From positions 124,001 through 188,000 of the forward strand of contig JANJGN010000210.1 in assembly GCA_026770705.1 (NCBI GenBank): a stretch of DNA of 64,000 nucleotides, written 5' to 3'. The position numbers and the translations under genes are program-made. The DNA comes from Isurus oxyrinchus. Taxonomy: Eukaryota. Each line of letters begins with the position of its first letter. Within the stretch, counting starts at the first letter, position 1. Shown here one piece after another: positions 417 to 62,013 of this stretch. The notes under the pieces are model-generated. The model saw only the letters and a program-made list of their open reading frames with translations, made no database searches and was not told the origin of the DNA.

Positions 417-721
417 GTCTCTTGCACAGTAATAGATGGCGGTGTCTTCAGTCTTCAGGCTCGTCATGTCCAAGGAAAAGATGTTTCTTGAAGTGTCTTT
501 GGACGCAGTAAATCGATTTTTAATTCCTGGGGCGTAGTTGTTGCTGGATGAACTATCGTACCGAAGCAGCCACTCCAACCCTTGTCCGGGAACCTGTCGG
601 ACCCAGCTCATCCAGTAGATGCCAAGATCGAAGCCGCTGGTTTTACAGGTCAGTGTCAGGGAGCCTCCGGGACGCCCGGTCTCTGCCTCTGGCTGAGTCA
701 ACACAACCTCCGACTGGACAC
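417..721 (-). CDS. IGHV: Germline IgH (IgM-type) V exon
   Basis: Acceptor tttttacag|GT. Translates [51 protein letters not shown]...RFTASKD...[11 protein letters not shown], with canonical Cys, Trp and YYC and no stops. Confidence 0.95.
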
Positions 722-847
722 CTGTAAAAATATATCAAAAACCCCGAGGATTAATCCTGGTGAAATGATTCCTGACTCTGTAACATTCCAGAGAGATTAA
801 CTCTGAGACAGTAATAGTGACACACTTGGAGAATGAAAACTACTCAC

Positions 848-893
848 GGGATAAGAAAGTCAGCAAGAAACTGAGAGAAATCGCCGACCTCAT
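848..893 (-). CDS. IGHV: Leader exon of the VH (MRSAISLSFLLTFLS-R)
   Basis: 46-nt phase-1 exon ending at C|GTGAGT, splicing in frame to the V exon; alternative in-frame ATG at 905. Confidence 0.9.
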
Positions 894-982
894 CCTTCTG
901 GTCATTTGGGGAAAATGGTTCTGTCCAGAACTCAGTAAACAAACCAGCTCCCGGACTGTTGGATTCCGGCTCCAGTGAGCGA

Positions 983-15270: not shown

Positions 15271-18200
15271 CTCAGTTTTTATCAATCTAGACCCTGTATC
15301 TGTAATCACCGTACTAGACCTTGTCTTCCTTACATTACTTTAGAGCATCAGTAATCACTGCACTGTGCCCTGTCACAGTTTATATTGAGCTAGACCATGT
15401 ATCAGTAGTCTCTGCACTAGATCTGTCTCAGAATATAATAATCTAGATCCTCTATCTGTATTCTCTGCACTTGAGGCTCTCTCAGTTTATATTAATCTAG
15501 ACCCTGTAACATTACTTACTGCACTAGGTCCTGTCTCAGTTTTTATCAATCAAGACCCTGGATCAGTAATCACTGCAATGGGCATTGTCTCAGTTGACTT
15601 TGATCTAAACCCTGTATCAGTAATCATTGCAACAGACCCTGTCTCAGTTTATATTAATTTAGTCCCTGCAGCAGTCATCACTGCAAGATCTCCTGTCCCA
15701 ATTGTATTTATCTAGGCCCTGTACCAGTGGACATTTCACCAGGCTCTGTCTCAGTTTATGTTGATTCAGACCCTGCATCAGTAATTACTGCACAAGAGCC
15801 TGTCTCAGTTTATATTAATCAAGACCCTGTTTCAGTAATCACTGCATTCGACCCTGTTCTGGTATTAATAATTTGCACCCTGAACCTAAAAGCACTGTAC
15901 TGGACTGCTTCTCAGTTTATATTAATCTAAAGCCTGTACCTGTAGTCACTGCACTAGGCCCTGTCCCATTTTATATGCATCCAACCCTGTAACACAAATC
16001 CTGGCACCAGGCCTTGTCTCAGTTTATATCAATCTAGACCCTATACCAGTAATCACTACACTAGACGCAAGTCATTTTATATCAGTTTGGACCTTATGCC
16101 AGTAATCACTGCACTTGACCCTCTCTGAGTTTATATTAATCTCGGCCCAATATCAGTAATCCCTGCACTATGTCCTGTCTGAGGTTTTCTTTTATCAATC
16201 TAGACCCTGTATCAGTTATCACTGCCTCATCCCAGTTATATTTATCTAGGCCCTATATCAATGAACACTGCACCAGGCCCTGTCTCAGTTTATGTTAGTC
16301 CAGACCATGTATCAGTAATTACTGTACAAGAGCCTGTCTCAGTTTATATTAATCAAGCCCCTTTTTCAGTAGTCACTGCACTCGTCCCTGTTCTGGTTAT
16401 AATAAACTGCACACTGAATCTATAATCACTGCACTTGGCCCTCTCTCAGTTTCTATTAACCTAGACCTTGTATCAGTAATCACTGCAGTAGTCCCTGCCT
16501 CAGTTCATATTTATCTTGGCCCTGTATCAGTAATCACTGCATTAGACATTGTCGGAGTTTATATTGATTGAGACCCTGTATCAGTAATTACTGCGCAAGA
16601 ACCTGTCTCAGTTTATATTAAGCTAGATCCTGTGCCTGTAATCACTACACTAGAACATGCCTCAGTTTACATTAATCTGGATCCTGTATCAGTAATCAGT
16701 GCACTCAGCATTGTCTGAGTTATGCTGAATGAGACACTGTATTAATAAACACTGTGCTAGACCCTGTCTCAGTTTATATTAATCTAGATCCTGTATCAGT
16801 CATCACAGCACTATGGCCTGCCTCAGTTTATATTAGTCCAGACCATCTATCAGTAATAATTGCAATAAGCCCTGTCTCAGGTTATATTAATCTAGATCTT
16901 GTATCAGTAATGACTGCACAAGGCCCTGTCTCACTTTATATTAATCCAGACCCGTATCAGTAATCACTGCACTTGGACCTATCTCAGTTTATATTGATCG
17001 GGACACTGTATCAGTAATTACAGCAATATGGCCTACCTCAGTCTATATCAATTTAGACCGTCTATCAGTATTCAGTGCACTTGGCCCTCTCTCTGTTTCT
17101 ATTAATCTAGACCCTGTATCAATTATCACTGCATGAAGCCCTGCCTCAGTTTATATTAATCTAGCTCTGCATCAGTAATCGCTGCACTGGGCATTGTCTA
17201 AGTTCATATTGATTGAGACCATGTGTCAGTAATCACTGCACTCGGCCCTGCCGCAGTTTATATTAAGCTAGATGCTGTGCAATATGCCAGGCCTCATTTT
17301 GTTTATCAATCTAGACCCTGTATCAGTAATCACTGCACTAGACCTATCTCAGTTTACATTAATTTAGTCCCTGCAGCAGTAATCACTGCCCGAGCCCCTG
17401 TCCCAGTTATATTTATCTGGGCCCTGTGTCAGTGAACACTGCACCAGGCCCTGTCTCACGTTATGTTAGTTCAGACAGTATATCAGTAATTACTGTACAA
17501 GTGCCTGTCTCAGTTTATATTAATCAAGGCCCTGTTTCAGTAATCACTGCACTCGTCCCTGTTCTGGTTATAATAATCTGCACCCTGAATCTATAATCAT
17601 TGCACTTGGCCCTCACTCAGTTTCTATTAACCCATACCCTGTACCAGTAATCACTGCAATATGCCCTGCCTCAGTTTATGTCAATCTCATCCCTGTATCA
17701 GCAATTACTGCAATTTTCCCTACTTTTGTTTATATCAATCTAGACCCTAAATCAGTAATCGCTGCACTAGGCCATGCCTCAGTTCATATTAATCAAGACC
17801 ATGTATCAGTAATCACTGCACTAATCACTATCTCAGTTTTATTTTTATCAAGACCAAGGATCAGTAATCATTGCCCTAGACACTGTCTCATTTTATACTG
17901 ATGTACACCCCGTAACTGTAATCGCTTCAATGGACACTGTTTCAGTTTATATTGACCCTGATCCTGTATCATTAATCACTGCACTATCCCCTGTCCTATG
18001 TTAATCTAGTCCCTGTGACAGTAATCACTGCAATATGGCCTGCCTCAGTTCATATTAATCTAGACCCTAAATCAGTAACTGCTGCACTGCGCCCTGACTC
18101 AGTTCATATTAATTTAGGCCATGCATCAGTTATCAGTGCAATGGACACTGTCTCAGTTTATATTGATATTGATCCTGTATCATTAATCAATGCACTAGCC

Positions 18201-20544
18201 TCTGTCCTACTTTATATTTAGCTCGACCATGTATCAGTAATTACTGCACTATGCCCTCCTCCATTTTTATCATCTAGACCCTGTATTAGTAATCAGTGCA
18301 CTAGTCTCATTTTATATTAATCTAGACCCTGTATCAATAATCACTGCACTGGCCACTGTCTCAGTTTATATTGATCCAGACCCTGTATCAGTAATCCTGG
18401 CATTAGAGCCTGTCTCATTTTATATAAATCAAACCCTGTATAATAATCAGTGCAATGAACACCCTCACTTTATATTGCCCTAGACCCCGTATCGGTAATC
18501 ACTGCACTAGCCGCTGTCCTCGATTTTATTTATCTTGGCCCTGCAACACTAGTCACTGCACTATGGCCTGCCTTAGTTTATATCAATCCAGGTCCTGTAT
18601 CAGTAATAACTTCGCTGAACCCTGTCTCCATTTATGAGTCCAGACCCTGTGCCAGTAATCACTGCACTGGCCCTTATCCCAATACATATTTATGTCAACC
18701 GTCTCTGTTTATACTGATCTGGACGCTGTGCCAGTAATCACTGCACTAGACCCAACATCAGTTTATATCAATCCATATCCTGGATCAGTAATCACTGCAC
18801 TAGTCCCTATCTCTATTTATATTGATCTGGACGCTGTGCCAGTAATCACTGCACTAGACCCAGCATCAGTTTATATCAATCCATATCTTGTATCAGTAAT
18901 CACTGCACTAGACCTTATCTCAGTTTAAATGAGTCGAGAATCTGTATCAGTAATGACAGATCTAGAGAATGCCTCCACTTATTTTAGTCCAGACACTGTA
19001 ACAGTAATCACTGTTCTAGCCCCGGTCCCAGTTTATACTTATCAGTAATCACTGCACAATGCCCTGTCTCAGTTTCTGTCAAGCTAGAGCCTGTATCAGG
19101 AATCACTGCACTAAACCCCGTCTCAGTTTATATTAATCAAGACCCTGTATCAGTAATCACTCCACTGGACACTGCCTCAGTTTATATTGATCTAGACCAT
19201 GTATCAGTAATCACTGCACTAGACCCTGTCTCAGTTTATATTAGCCCTAGAGCCTTGTTCAGTAATTACTGCAATATGGCCTGCCTCAGTTCATATTAAT
19301 TTAGGCCATGTATCAGTAATTACTTCAATGGACACTGTCTCAGTTTATATTGACCCTGATCCTGTATCATTAATCAATGCACTAGCCTCTGTCCTGCATT
19401 ATATTTACCTTGGTCCTGCATCAGTAATTACTGCACTTGGCTCTGTCTCAGTTTACATTTATCTAGACCTTGTATCAGTAATCACTGCACTATGCCCTGC
19501 CTCTGTTTTTATCATCTAGACCCTGTATCATTAATCATCACACTAGGCTCTGTCTCAGTTTATATTAATCTAGACTCTGTATCAGTAATCATCACACTAG
19601 GCTCTGTTTCAATTTATGTTAATCAAGACCCCGTATCGGTAATCACTGCACTGGACACTGTCTCAGTTTATATTGATCTAGACCATGTATCAGTAATCAC
19701 TGCACTCGGCTCTGTCTCAGTTTATATTAGCCCTAGAGCCTTGTTCAGTAATTACTGCAATATGGCCTGCCTCAGTTCATATTAATTTAGGCCATGTATC
19801 AGTAATTACTTCAATGGACACTGTCTCAGTTTATATTGACCCTGATCCTGTATCATTAATCAATGCACTAGCCTCTGTCCTGCTTTATATTTACCTTGGT
19901 CCTGCATCAGTAATCACTGCACTAGACTCTGTCTTTTTATATTAATCTAGACTCTGTATCCGTAATCATCACACTAGGCTCTGTTTCAATTTATGTTAAT
20001 CTAGACCCTGTATCGGTAATCACTGCACTGGACACTGTCTCAGTTTATATTGATCCAGCCCCTGTATCAGAAATCACTGCACTAGGCTCTGTCTCAGTTT
20101 ACATTAATCTAGACCCTGTATCAGTAATCACTACACTATGCCCGGCCTCTGTTTTTATCGTCCAGACCCTGTATCAGTAATCATGACACTAGGCTCTGTC
20201 TCAGTTTATATTAATCTAGACCCTGTTTCAGTAATCACTGCACTGGACACTGTCTCAGTTTATATTGATCCAGACCCTGCATCAGCAATCACTGCAGTAG
20301 GCCCAGTCTCAGTTTATATTTGTCTCGGCCCTGTATCAATAATCTCTGCACTGGACATTGTCTGAGTTTATATTAATCTTGACCCTACTTCAGTTTTCAT
20401 TGCACTGGACCCTGTCTCAGATTCTATTGAACTAGACCCTGTATTAGTAATGAATGCACTGGACATTGTCTGAGTTTATATTGATCAGGACCATGTATCA
20501 GTAAACACTGCACTAGAACCTGTCTCAGTTTCTATTAATCTAGC

Positions 20545-20692
20545 CATCTATGTCATTTATATAAATGACAAATAATAGGGGACCCAGCACAGATCCCTGT
20601 GCTACACCACTGGACACTGGCTTCTAGTAACTAAAGCATCCTTCTGTCATCATCCTCTGTCTCCTACAACAAAGCCAATCTTTGAATTATAT
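20545..20692 (-). mobile_element. Copy of the 5' junction of the CR1 at 15112-15265
   Basis: Near-identical sequence (GGGGACCCAGCACAGATCCCTGTG...GAATTATATTCT) with the same satellite junction. Confidence 0.8.
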
Positions 20693-23600
20693 TCTGCCCT
20701 GTCTCAGTTTTTATCAATCTAGACCCTGTATCAGTAAGCACTATACTAGGCCTTGTCTCAGTTTACATTAATTTAGAGCCTGCATCAGTAATCATTGCAC
20801 TGTGCCCTCCGCAGTTTATATTAATCAAGACCCCGTGTCAGTAATCACTGCACTGGATACTGCCTCAATTTATATTGAGCTAGGCCATGTATCTGACATC
20901 TCTACACTAGACCTGTCTCAGATTATATTAATCTAGACCCTGTACCTGTAATCTCTGTACTTGAGGCTCTCTCAGTTGATTTTAATCTAGCCCCTGTAAC
21001 ATTAATCGCTGCACTAGGCCCTGTGTCAGTTTTTACTAATCAAGACCCTGTATCAGTATTCACTGCAGTAGAAACTGTCTCAGTTGATATTGATCTAGAC
21101 CCTGTCTCAGTTTATATTGATCCTGGTCCCACATCTGTTATCTCTGCACTAGATTCTGTCTCACTTTACATTAGCCCAGTCCCTCTATCAGTAATCACTG
21201 CACTAGATCCATTCTCAGTTTATATTAATTTAGTCACTGCAACTGTAATCATTGCAAGAGCTCCTGTCCCAGGTATATTTATCTGGGCCCTGTATCAGTG
21301 AACACTTCACCAGGCCCTGTCTCAGTTTATGTTGGTTCAGACCCTGTATCAGTAATTACTGCACAAGGGCCTGTCTCAGTTTATATTAATCAAGACCCTG
21401 TTTCAGTAATCATTGCACTCGACCCTGTTCTAATAATAATAATTTGCACCCTGAACCTAAAAGCAGTGCACTGGACTGTTTCTCAGTTTCAATTAATCTG
21501 GACCCTGTACCTGTAATCACTGCACTGGACCCTGTCCCATTTTTCTGCACCCAATCCTGTAACACAAATCATGGCACTCGGCCTTGTCTCAGTTTATATC
21601 AATCTAGGCCCTGTATCAGTAATCGCTGCAATAGATCCTATGTTTTTATAACAATTTAGACACTATATCAGCAATCACTGCACTTGAGCCTCTCTGACTG
21701 TATATTAATCTCGGCCCGGTATCAGTAATCCCTGCACCATGCCTTGCCTCAGCTTTTTTTTATGAATCTAGACCCTGTTTCAGTTATCCCTGAACTAGGC
21801 CCCATCTCAATATCTATATTAACCTAGACCCTGTATCAGTAATCACTGCCCGAATCCCTGTGCCAGTTATATTTATCTAGGCCCTGTATCAGTGAACACT
21901 GCACCAGGCCCTGTCTCAGTTTATGTTAGTTCAGACCGTGTATCAGTAATTACTGCACAAGAGCCTGTCTCAGTTTATATTAATCAAGACCCTGTTTCAG
22001 TAATCACTGCACACGTCCCTGTTCTGGTTATTATAATCTTCACCATCAATCTATAATCACTGCACTTGGCCCCCTCTCAGTTCCTGTTAACCTAGACCCT
22101 GTATCAGTAATTACTGCAGTAGGCCCTGCCTCAATTTATATTTATCTCATCCCTGTATCAGTAATCACTGCCTTGGGCATTGTCTGAGTTTATATTGATT
22201 GAGACCCTGTATCAGTAATTACTGCACAAGAACCTGTCTCAGTTTATATTAAGCTAAATCCTGTGCCTGTAATCACTGCACTAGAGCATGCCTCAGTTTT
22301 TATAAATCTAGATCCTGTATCAGTAATCAGTGCACTCGGCATTGTCTGAGTTTATATTGATTGAGACCCTGTATCAGTAAACACTGGACTAGAGCCTGTC
22401 TCAGTTTATATTTATCTGGACCCAGTATCAGTAATCACTGACTATGGTCTGCCTCAGTTTATAACAGCCTAGACCCTGTATCTGTAATCACTGCACTTCG
22501 CAGTGTCTCAGTTTTCACTTATCAAGACCGTGCATCAGCAATCACTGCAATGAACACTGTCTCCATATATATTGCTCTCGGCTCTGTATCACTGCAATAT
22601 GCACTCCCTCAGTTTATATCAAATAGACCATGTGTCAGTAATCACTGCACGAGACCCTGTCACAGTTTATATTAACAAAGAGCCTGCATTTGTCATCACT
22701 GCACAATGCCCTGCCTCAGTTTATATCAATCAAGACCCTGTATCAGTAATCTCTGCACTAGGCCCTGTCTCCATTGATATTGATCTAGATCTTGTATCAG
22801 TAATCACTACAAAGGACACTGTCTCAGTTTATATTGATCATGATCCCGTATCATTAATCACTGCACTAGCCCTTGTCCTGGCTTATATTTATCTAGGCCC
22901 TGTCTCAGTTTATATTAATCTGTACCTTGTATCAGCAATCACTGCACTATGCCCTGCCTCAGTTTTTTTAAAATCAGTCTAGACCCTGTATCAGTAATCA
23001 CTGCACTAGGCCTATCAAAGTTTATATTAATTTAGCCCCTGCAGCAGTAATCACTGCCCGAGCCCCTGTCCCAGTTATATTTATCTGGGTCCTGTGTCAG
23101 TGAACAGTGCACCAGGCCCTGTCTCAGGTTATGTTAGTTCAGACCGTGTATCAGTAATTACTGTACAAGAGCCTGGTTCAGTTTATATTAATCAAGGCCC
23201 TGTTTCAGTAATCACTGCCCTCGTCCCTGTTCTGGTTATAATAATCTGCACCATGAATGTATAATCACTGCACTTTGCCCTCTCTCAGTTTCTATTAACC
23301 TGGACCCTGCATCAGTAATCAATTCAATATGCCCTTTCTTAGTTTATATCAATCTAGACCCTAAATCAGTAATCGCTGCACTAGGCTGTGCCTCAGTTCA
23401 TATTAATCTAGACCATGTATCAATAATCACTGCAGTAGACACTATCTTAGTTTTATATTTATCAAGATATTGGATCAGTAATCACTGCACTAGCCCCTGA
23501 CCTAGTTTATATTGCTCTCCTCCCTGTGTCAGTAATCACTGCACTAGGCCCTGCCTCACTTTATTTCAACCTAGAACATCTATCAGTAATCACTGCACTA

Positions 23601-24529
23601 GGCTCTGTCTCACTTTATAGCAACCTAGACCTTCTATTAGTAATCACTGCACTAGGCTCTGTCTCAGTTTATATTGATCTAGACCCTGAATTAGTAATCA
23701 CTGCACTATGGCCTGCCTCAGTTCATATTAATCTGTTCCTAAATCAGTAATCGTTGCACTAGGCCCTGCCTCAGTTCATATTAATTTAGGCCATGTACCA
23801 GTAATCACTGCAATGGGCACTGCCTCAGTTTATACTGACCCTGATCCTGTATCATTAATCACTGCACTAGCCTCTGTCCTATTTTATATTCACCTCGGCC
23901 CTGTATCAGTAATCACTGCACTATGCCCTGTCTCAGTTAACATTAATCTAGACCCCGTATCAGTAATCTCTGCACTATGCCCTGCCTCAGTTAACATTAA
24001 TCTAGACCTTGTATCAGTAATCTCTGCACTATGCCCTGCCTCAGATTTTATCATCTGGACCCTGTATCAGTCATCACTGCACTCAGCTCTGTCTCAGTTT
24101 ATATTGATTCAGACACTGTATCAGTAATCATTGCACTAGCCACTGTCCTCATTTTTATTTATCTAGGCCCTGCATCAGTAATCACTGCACTATGCCCTGC
24201 CTCAGCTTATATCAATCCAGATCCTGTATAAGTTACCACTTCGCTTGACCCTGTCTCAGTTTATATTAGTCCACAACCTGTATCAATAATGACAGAGCTA
24301 GAAAATGCCTCAGTTTATGAGTCCAGATCCTGTATCAGTAATCACTGCAATGGCCCCCATCCCAGTATATATTTATATAGACCCTGGATCAGTAATCACT
24401 GCACTAGCGCCTGTCTCTGTTTATATTGATCTAGACCCTGTGTCAGTAATCACTGCACTAGACCCAGCATCAGTTTATATCAATCTAAACCCTCAAGCCA
24501 GACCCTGTATCAGTAATCGCAGCACTATA

Positions 24530-24870
24530 ATAAAAGCAAAAAACTGTGGATACTGGAAATCCAAAACAAAAACAAAAATACCTGGAAAAACTCAGCAGAA
24601 CAGGCAGCATCTGGGGAGAGGAGCACAGTTAACGTTTCAAGTCCGCATGACTCTTCAACAGAACTAAGGAAAAATAGAAAAGGGGTGAAATATGTCTTAT
24701 TAGCTTATATCCCACCATTCCCCGCCCCCTTTAACCAGCTTATATTTCACCCCTTTCCTATTTTTCCTTAGTTCTGTTGAAGAGTCATGCAGACTTGAAA
24801 CATTAACTGTGTTCCTCTCCACAGATGCTGCCAGACCTGCTGAGATTTTCCAGGTATTTTTGTTTTTGTT
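24530..24870. mobile_element. Inverted pair of Penelope-like termini with target-site duplication
   Basis: Arms ~24563-24692 and ~24741-24870 are reverse complements; flanked by ATCGCAGCACTATA / ATCGTAGCACTATA. Confidence 0.8.
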
Positions 24871-25479
24871 ATCGTAGCACTATACTCTGTCTCAGTTTAT
24901 ATTAATCAAGACCCTGTTTCAGTAATCATAGCACTTGGTCCTGCCTCAGTTTATATTAGTCTAGATCCTTTATGAGTAATCATTGCACTAGCTCCGGCAT
25001 CAGTTTATATCAACCTAGACCCTGTATCGCTAATCACTGCACTGGACACTGCCTCAGTTTATACTGATCTACACCCTGTATCAGTAATCATTGCTCTAGT
25101 CCCTGTCCTAGTTTATTTTTATCTCAGCCCTCTATGAATAATCATTGCACTATGGCTTGCCTCAATGTATATCAACCTAGACCCTGTATCAGGGCATTGT
25201 CTGAATTTATATTGATCAAGATCCTGTATCAATAAACACTGTCCCAGTTTATATTAATCTAAATTCTGTGTCTGTAATCAGTGCACTTGAGCATATTTCA
25301 GTTCATATTAATCTAGATCCTGTATCAGTTATCACTGCACGTGAGCCTGTCTCAGTTTACATTAATCTAGATACTGTATCAGTAAGCATTACACTAGGCC
25401 TTGTCTCAGTTCATGATAATCTAGACCCTCCATTAGTAATCACTGCACTAGGCACTGTCTCAGTTTATATCAATCTGGA

Positions 25480-26785
25480 TAAAAGCAAAATAGTGCGGAT
25501 GCTGGAAATCTGAAAGAAAAGCATAAAATGCTGGGACATTGCAGCAGGTCTGACAGCACCTGTGGTGAGAGAAGCAGAGCTAACTTTCTGAGACCGTATG
25601 ACCTTCCTCAGAGCTAAAGAGAAGTCGAAATGTGATGACATTTACTGTTTAAACGGGGTGGAGCAGGTCAAGCTGGATAGAAGGCAAGCAATAGGTAGGA
25701 GTAAGGTGACACTGCCAAACATATCATAGGCAAACAGAAAAAGGGAGTGTTAGTGGCAGTGGTAAGGCTAAAGTAGGTGTTAATAGAGTCATAAAGGTAA
25801 GAAAGCAGAATGTGTTAACAGCAGAGCCAGAATCAACACACTGTGAAAGAACAACTTGGGACAAGTAACTGATGGCACTTTTGGGGGTGTGGTAGGGGTG
25901 GTTGGGGAAAAATGGTATAAAAAGGAACGTAAAAGGGGATAAAAAAAGGATAAAACAATGAATAAATGAATAAGGCTGTAACATTCATAATTTTAAGATG
26001 AGTTTCTGTTCCTCCAGTTTGCGTTGGGCTTCACTGGGGCAATGCAGCAGGTCAAAGAGGGACATGTGGGTATCAGAGAAGGATGGCATGTTGAAATTGC
26101 AAGCGACAGGAAGGTCTAGGTCATGCTTGTAGATAGACTGAAGGTGTTCCACAAAGCGGCCTGCCAGTCTGTGTTTGGTGTCCTCAATCTAGAGGAGACT
26201 GCATTGGGAGCAGCGAATGCAGTCGACCAAATTGAAGGAGGTGCAATGCAGCAATGCTTCACCTGAGTGTTTAGGCCCTTGGACGGTGAGGAGGGAGGAG
26301 GTAAAGGGGCAGATGTTGCATCTTCTCTGATTGCTTGGGAAGGTGCCATGGGAAGGGATGAGGTGTTGCGGATGATGGAGGAGTGGACCAGGGTGTCTCA
26401 GAGGGAACAGTCCCTGTGGAATGCTGACAGGGGTGGGGCTGGAGTGGTGAGGGGAAGGTATGTTTGGTGGTGGTATCATGTTGGGGTTAGTGGAAAAGGC
26501 GGAGGATGATCCTTTGAATGCTGAGGTGGTGGGATGAAACGTGAGTAAAAGGAGGACTTTATCATGATTCTGGGAGAGAGGGGAATGTGTGAAAGCAGAG
26601 ATGTGGGAGATGGGTCGGACACAGTTGAGGGCCCTGTCAACCACAGTGGGTGGGTAACCTTGGTTAAGGAAGAAGGAAGGCATGTAAGAAGCATCATTTT
26701 GGATAGTGGCATCATCGGAACAGATGTGAAGGAGGTGAACAAATTAAGAGAATGGAATGGCGTTTTTCCAGCATTTTCTGATTTT
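25480..26785 (-). mobile_element. Penelope-like retroelement 3' part (RT end plus GIY-YIG endonuclease, decayed)
   Basis: ORF 26189-26683: FFLNQGYPPTVVDRAL...GTFP...RRCNICPF...FNLVDCIRCSQC, typical of the PLE linker/GIY-YIG start. Confidence 0.8.
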
Positions 26786-49141: not shown

Positions 49142-49184
49142 ATGGGAATCCTCCATGTTTTCACCCTGTGTGTCTATTTATCCC
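49142..49184 (+). CDS. Leader exon of the NAR-TCR V (MGILHVFTLCVYLS-R)
   Basis: 43-nt phase-1 exon ending C|GTGAGT, in frame with the V exon. Confidence 0.9.
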
Positions 49185-49328
49185 GTGAGTACCGATCAAA
49201 CAAACCGACATTGTGTGGGTTTAATATAAAGCTGCCCGAGTCCATTCCATTTACAGACACTGTCCGGAGTTTTAACCCCGTTCTGTGGTTCGGCTCTGAT
49301 AGTCCATTAAACTCTGTTTAATTTCCAG

Positions 49329-49613
49329 GCTCTTTCAGTCAGTCAGTGACACAGACCCCGGCAGCGGTGACCAGGAAGGAGTGTCAGTCTCTCACCATCA
49401 CCTGTGTTTTCTCCGCTGCTTCGTGGCATTATTTCCAAACGGGACATTTCTTCAAACAAACACAGAGTGGGACTGAGCGGGAGCGGATCTCCAGCTGGGG
49501 GAGATTTGTTGTTTCGGTGAATAAAGCACGAAAGACATTTTCGCTGGAAATTCAGGATGTGAGAGTTGAGGACACCGCCACCTATTACTGTAAAGCTCAG
49601 TACCTGCACGACA
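49329..49613 (+). CDS. NAR-like V segment of NAR-TCR
   Basis: Acceptor tttccag|. SFSQSVTQTPAAVTRKECQSLTITCVF...ERERISSWGRFVVSVNKARKTFSLEIQDVRVEDTATYYCKA: IgNAR-like, with FR2/CDR2 deletion and an extra FR1 Cys. Open frame. Confidence 0.9.
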
Positions 49614-49651
49614 CACAGTGATGGGCCTCGGCTGCCCGCGATACAAAAACT
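49614..49651 (+). other. RSS of the NAR V (22-nt spacer, two-turn class)
   Basis: CACAGTG + ATGGGCCTCGGCTGCCCGCGAT + ACAAAAACT. Confidence 0.92.
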
Positions 49652-49979
49652 CTCTCTGCCGATTATCACAGAAACAAATGAAAAAGCGGAGTTAATCTGC
49701 AGTTAAACTCCAACAGTTGCGCCTCACACCGTCTGCCCCACAGTCTAGTTTATAATGAGATTGGATTATTGCTGTTAACATCTTGAGTTTTATAAATGCC
49801 GAGTGTGTGCGGATGGTGATGTCTATCCCGGGATTGGTGTCAGTGAATGGGGATTGGGAATGACTGATCCCAGTTGCAAACCCCGAACGCCATATGTGAT
49901 TCTGGTCTAACAGCTGGAACCGGGAACCGCAGTCCCCGGTGTTTAACTAATGTCCACAAATCTCAACAAACACCCGGGG

Positions 49980-50052
49980 GATTTAATACTGACTTTGTAA
50001 CACTGTGTGGATGGATGGGGGAGTCACAATGGGAGAGACCTGAGCAAATAAC
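49980..50052 (+). other. D segment (50008-50024, TGGATGGATGGGGGAGT) flanked by 12-RSSs
   Basis: GATTTAATA-12-CACTGTG | D | CACAATG-12-GCAAATAAC. Heptamers good, nonamers degenerate. Confidence 0.8.
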
Positions 50053-50367
50053 TCTATACAATTTAAATATAAATTCTCCGGGCCTGGATAGTGAATTGTC
50101 GGGTTGATGTTATTATCGCTGGAATCTGGTTACATTTCATTTTAATTCCCACCATTCAGTTATCTTTCTTTGATATTTTTCTCGGTTTATATGAAGCGAA
50201 CATCTAGTTCCCGGGACTATTTACTCAGTGCTCAGGGCCTCACAAAGGACGGTTTGAACCGACAGAGACTTTGAAACGTTGAATATTGTTTATTTATTTA
50301 AATCCGCTGAATAATTGCGCAGTTTCTACTGTCTGATGATGATTTCCGGGCAGGTTGCGGTGTCGGT

Positions 50368-50459
50368 GGTTGTTGTACCTGGGAGACTGAGAGCGGTGTT
50401 ACTGTGGTGGGTTACTGATTATGCGGATGGATCCGGGACAGTGGTGACTGTCACAGACG
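50368..50459 (+). other. J segment (50407-50459, WVTDYADGSGTVVTVTD) with 5' 23-RSS
   Basis: GGTTGTTGT-23-TACTGTG; NAR-type DGxGT motif; phase-1 donor G|GTAAGT. Confidence 0.9.
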
Positions 50460-51409
50460 GTAAGTGACTCCAACCCACGCCGCGTTACAGACTGTCCCGG
50501 GTAATGTTATTGATATCAGTGGAGTTTGGGTGGGATGTGGGAGTTGACGGAATCTGGACAATTATTGGTTTAATGGGCACATCGGGGACAACATCAACAT
50601 CAACATCACGGACTCTCACACGCTGAATCGCTTTTAATGAGCACAGGTTGGCGACAATCCGGACCCCACTCCTAGCGTTAACTGTGACCGAGGGAGCTCT
50701 GTCTGTCCCTTAGAACCCGGGACCGGGGTCACAGAGCTCTCTCCTGGGCAGCAGATTGCAGTCCGAGCCGCGGAATGTGAATGAGGTACCGGTTGAACAA
50801 ACTCAACACAACTGCGGCCAGTTCGGGTACCTGCAGCGGCTCGTTCAACACCTGACCCGGGAGAAAAACGGGACAGTGACACAACGGACTCCAGATATAA
50901 GAGATCCTGATATGGGTCCAGATGGAATTTTATTATTGGGCAATCAGTGACTGAAATTTGTGACATTGTCCCCTCCATTTCTTTCAGTTGCCTCCATATA
51001 ACCAATCAGTTTCCTCCTCTTCTGTCTTCAGACCGAAATATGAATGATTGGGACTGCAGGCACTTCTCTATCTTGAATGTAGATGTTTGAAAGATGGGAT
51101 TGCAGTAATTTATCTGTATCCCTGATTACTATGAATTGAATCAACACAGTGCAGAGAACGAGTGAGGGTAATGCTTTAATCTTATGAATGAGTACAGGGA
51201 CAGAAGGAAACAGTTATAAACAGGGGGAACGTTCGTTGATAACCAGCAAGAAATAATTAATCGAAAGGGAGAGAAGGATTGGCTGAATTCTGGGTGCCTT
51301 TCAAAGTACAATCCGACCCCAGGGTGGTGGGTGAGGTTTATGGAGGGAAGGATTGAAATAGACTCCAGTCCAGAATGCTGTGTAAAATTCTGTTCTCCTT
51401 ACAGAAGAT

Positions 51410-51910
51410 AGATCAACCTGCATTGGAAGGATTGCAACAAATGTTCTTCAGACTGATTCCTGAGATGAAGGGATTGTCCAATGGGAAGAGATTTAGTCGC
51501 CTCGGTCTATATTTCCCAGAGTTTAGAATAAAGAGAGGTGATCTCATGAAAACATATAATATACTGAAGGGTTTTGACAGGGCAGATTCTGGCTCGGAGT
51601 TTCCCCAGACTGAGGAGTATCGAACTCGGGGTCACAGCTTCAGAATAAAGAGTCATCCATGAGAACTGAGAAGCAAAAAAATCTTCAGTCGAACCATTGT
51701 TGTGAATGTGTTGCATTCTGTAAATCAGAGCGCTATGGATGTTCAGTATCTGTTTGCATTGAAGACAATATTTGATTGGTTTGCAGACACTAAAATATCA
51801 GGGATATGGGGAGAATGCGGAGATGTGCTGTTGATGTTGTAAATCAGCCAGGATATTACTGAATGGCTGAGGAGGTTTGAAAGGTGATCTGGCGACTCCT
51901 GCTTCTATTG
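51410..51910 (+). mobile_element. CR1-like LINE 3' fragment in the J-to-supporting-V intron
   Basis: LGLY..EFR..RGDL..TYNILKG motif. Confidence 0.75.
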
Positions 51911-53375
51911 ATTGGATTCTCTGCTTTGATTTCTTACACCCCTGAGAAAAGAAATCAGCAACAATCCACATCTCTCTGGGAAGATTGAACAGGCTGGGTC
52001 TTTTTTTTCTGAAAAACAGAACTACAAGGAGAATCCATAGAAATCTTTTCAATAATGAACGGTTTTATGGTGGAGAAATTTTTCATTTGTGACTAAGTCC
52101 AAGGCAACATCCGTCAACATATAACAATCATTAACAGAACAAATAAAATATTTAAGACAAATGAATTGAAACAAAGGCAGGTTAGAATGTGGAACTTGCT
52201 GCCACAGGGAGAGGTTGGGGATAGTATTGATATATTTATTGGAACACTTGGAAATACAGGAGGGAGAACGGAACAGGCCAACACAGGGAGCTGGATGTAA
52301 ATGGTCAATTAGATTTCGGGCGGAGTCAGGCTGGAATTGATTATATGCACAGGCTGAATGGCCCATTCCTCTTCCGCATTCTTCTTCCTCTATAATGTAA
52401 AACTGAGAGAAAACTCCACCCAGTGAACCCGGGAGAGAATCAGTCAATGGGAGGAAAGAATGAAATTTTCAGAGAACTGGAAGAGGCAGTTCCCAGTGAG
52501 TAACAGGAAAACCACTGCGGAAACTGAACAGACAACTGAGAAACTTTGGGGCAAGTTCCCACGGTTGCAAAAAGTACAAACAGCACAAAATAAATGTCAA
52601 ATAAAGGGAATGTGAAATTAAAGAAATAAAATGAAATTAATTGCACCTATTTGAAATTAAGTTGAACTGGAGAAAATTGGACCCTATTGATAGAACATAA
52701 AGGAATAGAGCAAAAGGCAGATCGAAATTTCTGAGCAGTTTTAAACAGCAGTGAATGATTGACCTTTCACCACGAGAGATGCTCACTCTCGGTTTGGCCC
52801 AGTCGGTGCTGATGAACCCCATCCATTTGTGTTGGATCTTGCTGTGCACAGTGTTTCCTCGCAGCTGTGTTCCTCTCCAACACACATGCTTTTTGGAAAC
52901 TGGTTGCCTCGCTGAACATAAAATGCTCCCTCGTGTTGGCCTCTCACCAAGGAAAATAGAAACGGGAATGTAATATAATTCATAGAATTGTCTAGCACGA
53001 AAGGATGACATTTGGCCCATCGCTGACCCTTTAAAAGTGCAATCCAATTGTTCCCACTGCCCATGAATTTTCTCTATAGCTCTATATTTGTATTTACATT
53101 TCCAGCACAGATCATTAACCGTTTGAAAGCCACGACTGAATCTATCCCCAACACCAATTCAGACAGTGCTGTCCTGATCGGAAGAATTCGCGATGTAAAA
53201 TAAATCATCACCTCATTCCCCACTTGGTCATATTTTTATAAGAGTGAACACGGTTCAAACAGGCTTCCAGCAAATAAAATTACTGCAATAAGCAGAGCTA
53301 TTCACGCGATTGACAGATTCTCCTGGACAAACAGTGGTTGAACAAAAAGATAGTGTTCATTTTTTTATCCTATAG

Positions 53376-53680
53376 ATTCCAGTTCCATGATTTCCCGGAT
53401 TTCGCTTCTACAAACGTCTGCTGCTGGTGATAGCGTTACTTTAAGCTGTGGGTATTCAGGTATCTGTCAGTACACAGTACACTGGTATCGTCAGTCCCCA
53501 GGACAGGCTCCAGAATATCTTCTTCAGAGATACACTTCAGGAGAAGAGAATGAAGAAAACTCTGCAGGGAAAGAACTTCTGCTTCTATCGATTCTTCCGA
53601 GAAAATCAACCGGTTAAAGATCTCCAAACTGCAACTGAGCGACTCCGCTGTTTATTACTGTGAACTGAGTCGGCGCACAG
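53376..53680 (+). pseudogene. TRDV: Supporting TCR-delta V of NAR-TCR, with a 1-nt frameshift
   Basis: Acceptor tcctatag| in phase with J. DSSSMISRISLLQTSAAGDSVTLSCGYSGICQYTVHWYRQSPGQAPEYLLQR...SAG, then after a shift at ~53567-53572 RTSASIDSSEKINRLKISKLQLSDSAVYYCELSRR. CDR1 Cys at 53465. Confidence 0.88.
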
Positions 53681-53893
53681 CACAGTGATACGGAGCATGG
53701 AGAGAACCGTACAAAAACCTGAACATGGTGCAGAGTGACACAGAAACCAGAGGGCGCTGTACAAAAACCTGAACATGGTGGGGTAACAGACACACAGTGA
53801 TACAGAGCACGGAAAGAGTTGTACAAAAAGCTGAACATGGTGGGATTACAGACACACAGTGATACAAGGCACGGAAAGAAATCAAATAATTGC
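53681..53893 (+). other. Tandem array of four 23-spacer RSSs
   Basis: Heptamers at 53681 (CACAGTG), 53731 (CAGAGTG), 53793 and 53855 (CACAGTG). Each is followed 23 nt later by ACAAAAACC, ACAAAAACC, ACAAAAAGC and AATAATTGC respectively. Confidence 0.92.
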
Positions 53894-54179
53894 CCAATTT
53901 CGGGTTTACGTTGAAAGGAGCATACACACACACACACGCAAACCTACATACACACACAGAAGAGGGATGGGGCTAGGGAATCACTCCACGAATGTATTTT
54001 CAATTGACCTTATAATTTTGTGTCACAGAATAAAACCGTTAAACACATCAAGGTCGCACGTTCTTTCTGGCTCTGCAGAGCCTTTAACGTTTTTATACTT
54101 CGAGCCGCCTACAATACTCCCGCCAAAATAATTCATTCAATTATCCATTCTTCAACAAGCGATATGCACTTTATGGGCA

Positions 54180-60430: not shown

Positions 60431-61105
60431 CAATAAACATCACACCTCCGCAGAATGGGAACTGTAGAAACGTAGACATGTCGCCTCCAAACTAGCAGTA
60501 TTTCAGATATAAATCGTTTGGTGCTTCTCCAATTGCATATACCCGACACATCCTGCTTCCTAAACATCCTCCCGTGGAATCCTAACGAGCCAATTTAAAC
60601 AATGTCACAGTGTACATTTCAACAACAGAAAGATAATATGTCTACTGTATTTAGAGGAAATGCCCTGTAACATGATGCAATATCCAAAAGCTGAGTGCCA
60701 AATATTACAAGTAACCTCAAGGCCTTCAGCTGTTATGTCCTAAGCCCTCTTAAATTCACTCCCTAAAACATTCCGCCTCTCTACTGCACTCTCTTCCTTA
60801 AATCGTCCCTTAAACCTATATCATTCTCATTCTTTTTCGTCATTTGGCATAATATCTCCTTATGCGGTTGGATATTAAATTTTGCTGTATCACTCTCCTG
60901 TGACACGCTTGGGCCACGTTTTTACGTTAAAGGTGCTATATAACTGCAGCCTATCCATGTTGTTTATATTAAAACAGAGATGACATTGGAAAGCTATTAA
61001 TCATTAATTTGGTTGTCTTCTATAAACGAGGATGAAGTATCAGAAGCCTGTAACATTCACGTCCCTGCTTGAACTTTACAATGTTAATTTTGTTATTCCT
61101 CTCAG

Positions 61106-62013
61106 TTAACTTGGTGATAATTGTGATCCTATCCCGAGGAAGGTGTGGTCTCTCCAAATGCATCACTCGGTACCTGGTGTCCATGGCAGTGACGGATCTA
61201 TTAGTTGTTGTGAGCGCTGTGATATTCAATCGGATCATTGGCATTTATGTTCCCGTTAGTTTTATGTCCATGACTCCAGCCTGCACTCTCAGTACTGTGC
61301 TAATCTATGCAGCCACGGAGAGTTCTGTTTGGTTAACCGTCGCTTTCACCTTTGACCGATACATAGCCATTTGTTTCCAGAAGCTGAAAACAAATTATTG
61401 CACTGAGAGAATGGCGGCTGTGGTTATAGGAACTGTCTGTCTGTTAAGCTTTTTAAAAAGTGTTCCCTGGTACTTTATGTATGAACCACTCTATATAATG
61501 AACAATGTACCGTGGTTTTGTAATGTAAAATCAAGCTTCTACACATCACTCGCATGGACAGCCTATGATTGGTTTGCACGTGTTTTAAATCCGGTCTTGC
61601 CATTCCTCCTGATTCTGTTGTTCAATGCTCTGACCGTCAGGCACATCCTCGAGGCCAGTCGAGCCCGCAGGAGACTCCGGACTCACCGCAGTGGAGAGAA
61701 GCAGAGTGATCCAGAGATGAAGAACCGGAGAAAGTCAATTGTTTTACTCTTTACCATCTCGGGAAGCTTCATCCTGTTGTGGATGACGTACGTTGTAGAT
61801 TTCCTGTATATGAAAATTACAAACGAACCTTATTTCACAGGTTCCAATTTCAATGACCCCAAATTCATTCGCCAAGAAAGTGGAAACATGCTTCAGCTCT
61901 TGAGCTGCTGCACCAACACGTGTATTTATGCAGTGACCCAGAGAAAATTCAGAGAGGAGCTGAAAAATGCAGCAAAATATCCCTGGAATCTAATTGTGAA
62001 TTTAGTAAACTAG
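61106..62013 (+). CDS. GPR139/GPR142-like class A GPCR, coding exon 2 (spliced product 325 aa)
   Basis: Acceptor ttcctctcag|. YLVSMAVTDL, SVWLTVAFTFDRYIAIC, ILLFNALTV, CTNTCIY...KFREEL; open to TAG. Confidence 0.9.

Follow-up and report, generated by a model that had tools for sequence, protein, structure and literature searches.

The 64-kb stretch of the Isurus oxyrinchus genome analysed here (G000:C210:124001-188000, hereafter the window, to whose numbering all coordinates refer unless a contig is named) carries a cassette of NAR-TCR, a shark T-cell receptor (TCR) with two variable (V) domains that rearranges twice. As judged from its sequence, the cassette is a member of this known system by descent but probably not a functional gene; it is likely a pseudogene copy (probability about 0.88) in a large amplified family, in which the second, "supporting" V carries an inherited 1-base deletion and an early stop. 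Its parts are as follows (RSS, recombination signal sequence; FR, framework region; CDR, complementarity-determining region):

49142..49184, plus strand: NAR-TCR V leader exon, 14 codons + 1 nt, phase-1 GT donor at 49185; the leader type matches RefSeq two-V models
49329..49613, plus strand: open NAR-TCR V exon with an extra Cys in FR1 (49382), the canonical Cys pair (49403 and 49589) and Phe in place of the WYRK Trp
49614..49651, plus strand: 3' RSS of NAR V; spacer 22 nt, 1 mismatch
49979..50007, minus strand: 5' RSS of D; spacer 13 nt, 3 nonamer mismatches
50008..50024, plus strand: D segment of 17 nt without a stop in any of the three frames
50025..50052, plus strand: 3' RSS of D; spacer 12 nt, 1 heptamer and 3 nonamer mismatches
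50368..50406, minus strand: 5' RSS of J; spacer 23 nt, 2 mismatches
50407..50459, plus strand: NAR-TCR J segment of the DGSGT type, phase-1 GT donor at 50460
53376..53680, plus strand: leaderless supporting V-delta exon, AG acceptor, CDR1 Cys at 53465, frameshifted, stop at 53615-53617
53681..53719, plus strand: 23-RSS of the supporting V, a perfect consensus match
53731..53861, plus strand: stacked spare RSSs, namely 23-RSSs at 53731 and 53793 (1 mismatch each) and a lone heptamer at 53855, in a tandem unit of ~62 nt

The first-pass annotation had read the upstream half as leader-V(22)-(12)D(12)-(23)J. These parts are present, as are the 22-nt V spacer, the 12-nt spacer 3' of D and the 23-nt J spacer, but the spacer 5' of D is 13 nt and its nonamer has three mismatches; 12 nt is the length here in most paralogues, and the extra base is common to all five of the frameshifted copies described below. 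The order of the parts is the same in 20 of 20 fetched paralogues. Scored against an RSS consensus, the window contains four RSSs with no more than two mismatches, all of them within 49142-53900, where the chance expectation is a mean of 0.017 and a maximum of 1 (300 Markov resamples of 49142-53900). The supporting V begins 2.9 kb beyond the NAR J. The only candidate for a hidden leader in front of it, an ATG...GT match at 52447, is hydrophilic and not a signal peptide, so that no credible leader lies between J and the supporting V. The spare RSSs at 53731 and 53793 and the heptamer at 53855 were absent from the first-pass annotation; stacks of 23-RSSs, varying in number, follow the supporting V in most paralogues as well.

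The marks of NAR-TCR, as given in PMC1845163, are a first V that has a leader, carries a cysteine in its a-b loop and lacks the WYRK Trp, and a supporting V without a leader but with a CDR1 cysteine. The window cassette has all of them: its leader-bearing V is related to IgNAR and has the a-b loop Cys without the WYRK Trp (Phe by alignment with VNAR domains), it is followed by its own D and J with 12/23-compatible RSSs (22 / 13-D-12 / 23, the 5' D signal being degraded), and the supporting V-delta is leaderless, with the CDR1 Cys and a 23-RSS of its own. The NAR-TCR identity proposed at first pass thus stands, as do the extra cysteine codons at 49382 and 53465. An interdomain disulfide between the two extra cysteines has been predicted in the literature; in an alignment of two-V proteins the column of the FR1 Cys (C33) does not vary (34 of 34), the CDR1 Cys motif is present in most such proteins, and the AlphaFold model of P0015 has a pLDDT of 81.

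Among solved structures the best PDB matches of the NAR V are VNAR domains (E 1e-19), and Pfam V-set is matched too. A search for proteins of near length gave four matches, unnamed or hypothetical, without any named sequence of IgNAR or NAR-TCR; when longer relatives were sought, 52 proteins among 92 candidates were obtained, all of them shark or ray gene models and most with the two-V layout, and several two-V models run on into a TCR constant region. The supporting V is 84-89% identical to the second domain of one of these, P0003. In a tree of the NAR V (48 of 56 rows after removal of identical ones; 87 columns), which is mostly unresolved, the window V pairs with its paralogue on contig C26 (100/94).

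The deletion in the supporting V

At first pass the phase-1 donor of J was said to join in frame to the second V, and the cassette was called complete. The supporting V is indeed entered in frame, and its own 23-RSS is perfect, but the frame is held only to about codon 63, after which it shifts. Alignment with the 20 paralogues places a 1-nt deletion within 53560-53578; the TAA at 53615-53617 precedes the second canonical Cys, Pfam V-set matches the exon in two pieces in two frames, and the reading frame is not open through both V domains. Since this stop lies upstream of all RSSs, and ~65 nt upstream of the second junction, trimming or N-addition there cannot restore the frame, and rescue by junctional diversity or by a spare RSS farther downstream is ruled out. 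A message from the window copy would be truncated ~79 residues into the second domain and would probably be degraded.

A missing base beside a G/A run, where indel errors are common, could be an error of assembly at a short homopolymer, in which case the cassette would be intact and functional; every signal except the 5' RSS of D looks usable. Several observations speak against this. A pattern for the deletion form has exactly five matches in the assembly (on contigs C26, C140, C152, C210 and C301) and its reversed control has none, and the deletion is absent from most other paralogues in the same assembly. The five copies are 97.3-98.8% identical to one another over 5 kb, and within the supporting V exon the others are 96-98% identical to the window copy, the copies differing from one another there by 2-4%; at such distances they represent neither one read error nor merely two alleles of one locus. 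In addition, the site is spanned without a gap by contigs of two public runs, X1 (53490-53626) and X6 (53502-53667), the latter with another organism label and from another study. Because five copies share the deletion and contigs of two runs span it, we take it to be inherited; the assembly-error explanation is largely refuted, and an intact functional cassette is very improbable. The lesion would have arisen once, as its sharing suggests, and would then have been carried by segmental duplication to at least five places, a spread that the sharing itself shows.

Changes in the supporting V across the five copies number 16 non-synonymous and 4 synonymous (pN/pS 1.3-1.8). Of the other copies, one (L001) has lost the first canonical Cys of its supporting V, and another (L002) has a stop in its leader. 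A separate 1-nt deletion is present at nearly the same place in the supporting V of a cassette of another subfamily (L006, G000:C151:841200-849200), and this near-coincidence suggests a slippage-prone site.

Several facts weigh against calling the window cassette a pseudogene. Run X1 may come from the very sample that was assembled, and X6 contributes a single contig at a depth of 12.5. The leader, NAR V and J of the window copy are intact, as are its two splice sites and the supporting V's own 23-RSS. Across the five-copy clade the NAR V has 11 non-synonymous and 4 synonymous changes (pN/pS 0.87-1.17), too few to separate decay from use, and C210 is an 899-kb contig separate from those with a C-delta constant region. 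It is conceivable that the upstream half is still used, the broken supporting V(D)J exon being skipped and the NAR V-D-J spliced directly to C-delta to give a one-V chain. With phase 1 at the donor of the NAR J as well as at the acceptor of C-delta, the frame would be kept, and the NAR half is open in its leader, V, J and RSSs. On the other hand, the acceptor of the supporting V is intact and should be used, skipping would leave the FR1 Cys without a partner, the 5' RSS of D is degraded, the L002 leader is stopped, and the NAR V gives no sign of constraint. We regard such skipping as improbable and the pseudogene reading as much the better one.

Constant regions and genomic setting

The layout of the cassette is shown by its sequence. 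By analogy with the published system, RAG acting on an intact cassette would begin by joining NAR V, D and J locally, the supporting V would then join through its 23-RSS to D-delta and J-delta segments in front of C-delta, and phase-1 splicing would give leader-NARV-Vdelta-Cdelta. Searching the assembly with the TCR constant region of two-V models gave no C-delta match on C210, and no D-delta, J-delta or C-delta for the second rearrangement was found on that contig, so that in this respect too the completeness first claimed for the cassette is not supported. Full C-delta matches are two in the assembly, at C26:29.902 Mb (minus strand) and C242:617 kb (plus strand); we take this constant region to be C-delta from its delta-type transmembrane motif and from the D and J segments that precede it. 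In front of the C26 copy lie a 12/23 D-delta and several 12-RSS J-delta segments with phase-1 donors (29.90-29.93 Mb), which is what the 23-RSS of a supporting V needs. The closest C26 paralogue of the window cassette (L003) is 5.4 Mb from this C-delta and on the opposite strand.

The J-C-delta blocks at C26:29.90 Mb (L031) and C242:617 kb (L099) are ~88-93% alike over long matches, and in their sequence they look more like paralogues than alleles. A weak match to the transmembrane exon, which may be C-alpha, lies 135 kb behind the C-delta of C242, with none among the matches listed on C26. Directly upstream of the C26 D-delta is an open VH-like V segment (L034, G000:C26:29,933,811-29,934,158) that matches part of model P0004 and may be a TCR-delta-associated Ig-like V.

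Since the best solved-structure matches of the NAR V are VNAR domains, and since an IgM minicluster starts 48 kb away, the cassette might instead be an IgNAR or IgW minicluster whose J is spliced to an Ig constant exon, the outcome that the first-pass annotation had named as contradicting its own proposal. With four Ig CH exons as queries, no Ig constant exon is found between 112.6 and 248 kb of C210, and on that ground the explanation fails; moreover, the IgM cluster is on the other strand and points away, the V has the FR1 Cys and lacks the WYRK Trp, and RefSeq models with this pair of Vs continue into a TCR constant region. We consider an IgNAR or IgW locus here to be scarcely credible.

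The IgM minicluster (L027, L028) has its VH at window positions 417-905 (minus strand) and extends to G000:C210:109.6 kb; it consists of the VH, two D, a J and four CH exons, and runs away from the cassette, head to head with it, on the minus strand. Its VH is open, but the RSS has no recognisable nonamer and the segment may not rearrange. A similar VH lies ~45-55 kb from many NAR-TCR cassettes, again head to head, and this recurrence points to segmental duplication of a block of IgM, NAR-TCR and TCR V genes. That IgH clusters are linked with NARTCR V and TCR-alpha/delta has been described (PMC12227049, section 6). Beyond the window, G000:C210:189-248 kb (L021-L026) holds about a dozen V segments, TCR-alpha/delta in type, on both strands, several of them broken, and these are followed by another NAR-TCR cassette at C210:243.7-248 kb. 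Between the IgM VH and the window cassette are long arrays of 27/54-nt tandem repeats (10286-36821, chiefly 15347-25481), and on its other side an intronless 319-codon frame (61054-62010, plus strand) encodes a seven-transmembrane receptor of the rhodopsin family (Pfam 7tm_1, E 1e-25).

The family in the assembly and its germline-joined exons

A motif from FR1 of the NAR V has 138 matches in the assembly with at most one mismatch; this is not a gene count, since several additional contigs may represent alternative haplotypes. Among the 100 matches listed, 50 are on C26 at 23.1-39.2 Mb, on both strands. NAR-TCR cassettes there occupy G000:C26 23.1-40.2 Mb, likewise on both strands, and flank C-delta on either side at distances of up to 10 Mb. 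A script-based classification of the C26 stretches around the listed sites and of a few others covered 58 exons of the NAR V and 41 of the supporting V. Split V-D-J units make up 29 of the 58; 22 of these are open through the second Cys, three of the 22 having a stop just behind it. In another 12 only V and D are joined, a further 10 are open V-D-J-joined exons, and seven are unclassified (two of them joined exons with a stop). Stop-free supporting Vs with V motifs number 32 of 41. The window cassette thus follows the usual layout, but in a broken form that is in the minority.

The 12 V-D-joined exons (G000:C26 31.10-38.70 Mb, e.g. L050, L055, L058-L061, L063, L070-L072 and L077) have a 12-RSS that faces the 23-RSS of J, and one family of them is nearly identical to model P0005. 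No RNA run is listed as covering the stretch of the window cassette. In the contigs of runs X21-X24, tentatively RNA, that match the tandem paralogue L081, no exon-to-exon joint is present among those listed, and repeats and two short pieces cover exon and intron alike; they are uninformative on expression.

Exons in which NAR V, D and J are already joined in the germline lie outside the window:

G000:C26 29.98-38.77 Mb: joined NAR V-D-J exons, 10 open of 12 (L039, L045, L048, L051, L066-L067, L074, L075, L078, L079)
C210:442,825-451,999: further joined NAR V-D-J exons (L083-L084)

All 10 open exons retain the acceptor, the donor, the leader intron and the FR1 Cys. Each has a rearrangeable NAR unit upstream and an open supporting V on its other side, all on the same strand, and up to three such exons stand in a row (the array at C26 37.90 Mb is covered except for one 6-kb gap). 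The leader is dead in nine of the 10 (six with a stop at codon 4, two with the ATG lost and one with the donor lost), and it is intact in 21 of 22 open split Vs. Five joined copies with the codon-4 stop have a pN/pS of 0.39 after correction for transition bias (p 0.006), and addition of a sixth, divergent copy raises it to 0.59 (p 0.03); both p-values are generous, as the copies are related. The same joined CDR3s occur in RefSeq models labelled Carcharodon and Cetorhinus. In the NAR V tree, which does not show a single origin of the joining, the joined exons stand near models with these two labels, and the Carcharodon-labelled ones nest among the copies of this genome, from which they may not be independent.

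These exons raise the idea that some cassettes outside the window encode a TCR-delta chain with three or more V domains: a rearranged NAR V-D-J would be spliced to a joined NAR V-D-J exon that, like the supporting V, is without a leader, and this in turn to the supporting V-delta and C-delta. In a milder form, the joined exon would borrow the upstream leader and give an invariant NAR-TCR. Either form is at present unlikely. A second joined family (B, three copies) is without constraint (pN/pS 0.96), two further joined exons have stops and three are partly deleted, and the upstream RSSs are weak in several arrays. Germline maps of NAR-TCR cassettes are reportedly, and probably, contained in papers by Criscitiello (2006), Deiss (2019) and Ott (2021), where joined or tandem units may be mentioned as well. 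One PMC3964593 supplement file gave no hit in a term search.

The window cassette itself, as a broken copy of a described type of gene, is of little weight, and it would be a poor choice for probes or expression work, for which intact paralogues exist (e.g. L015-L017 and L019). The family setting is of modest value: with about a hundred NAR V exons spread over many Mb around two C-delta blocks, it makes the distance over which a supporting V can still be joined to C-delta testable. If the leader-dead joined exons do serve as internal exons, sharks would have a three-V TCR chain, or one whose antibody-like tip is invariant.

Comparison with known systems

The first-pass annotation presented resolution of the cassette at germline level as an advance. 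This is not new, because NAR-TCR V and supporting V genes have already been read from the elephant shark assembly (PMC1845163), maps of NARTCR V exons exist for four elasmobranch genomes (PMC12227049, section 6), and RefSeq holds models with the two-V layout in more than 10 shark and ray species. Such models (e.g. P0003, labelled Cetorhinus, and P0005, labelled Carcharodon) have the same leader-NARV-J-supporting V layout and are 60-89% identical to the window NAR V; they are open, whereas the window copy is not, and their database names are absent or wrong.

With NAR-TCR as published, the window cassette shares an IgNAR-like V, its own D and J, the leaderless supporting V-delta and a place among TCR-alpha/delta V segments and IgH clusters. 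It differs in the frameshift of the supporting V and in the 13-nt spacer 5' of D, and in the present assembly the family is very large (the 138 motif matches), lying on both strands across ~17 Mb of C26 as well as on other contigs, and it has two C-delta blocks. Antigen is believed to be bound by the unpaired NAR V on its own (PMC3457774, PMC5931798).

With the V of IgNAR (VNAR), the best match among solved structures, the NAR V shares the single-domain V fold without a CDR2. Unlike IgNAR, the window cassette has only one D, no IgNAR constant exons and no WYRK Trp, and a second V follows the first. Mammalian TCR-mu is similar in that its extracellular part has three Ig domains and an antibody-like V stands on top of a supporting V, but PMC7615758 and PMC3457774 hold it to be of independent origin. 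In marsupials the TCR-mu supporting V is germline-joined, and each cluster has a C of its own. In NAR-TCR, by contrast, the supporting V rearranges to D-J-C-delta segments that are shared.

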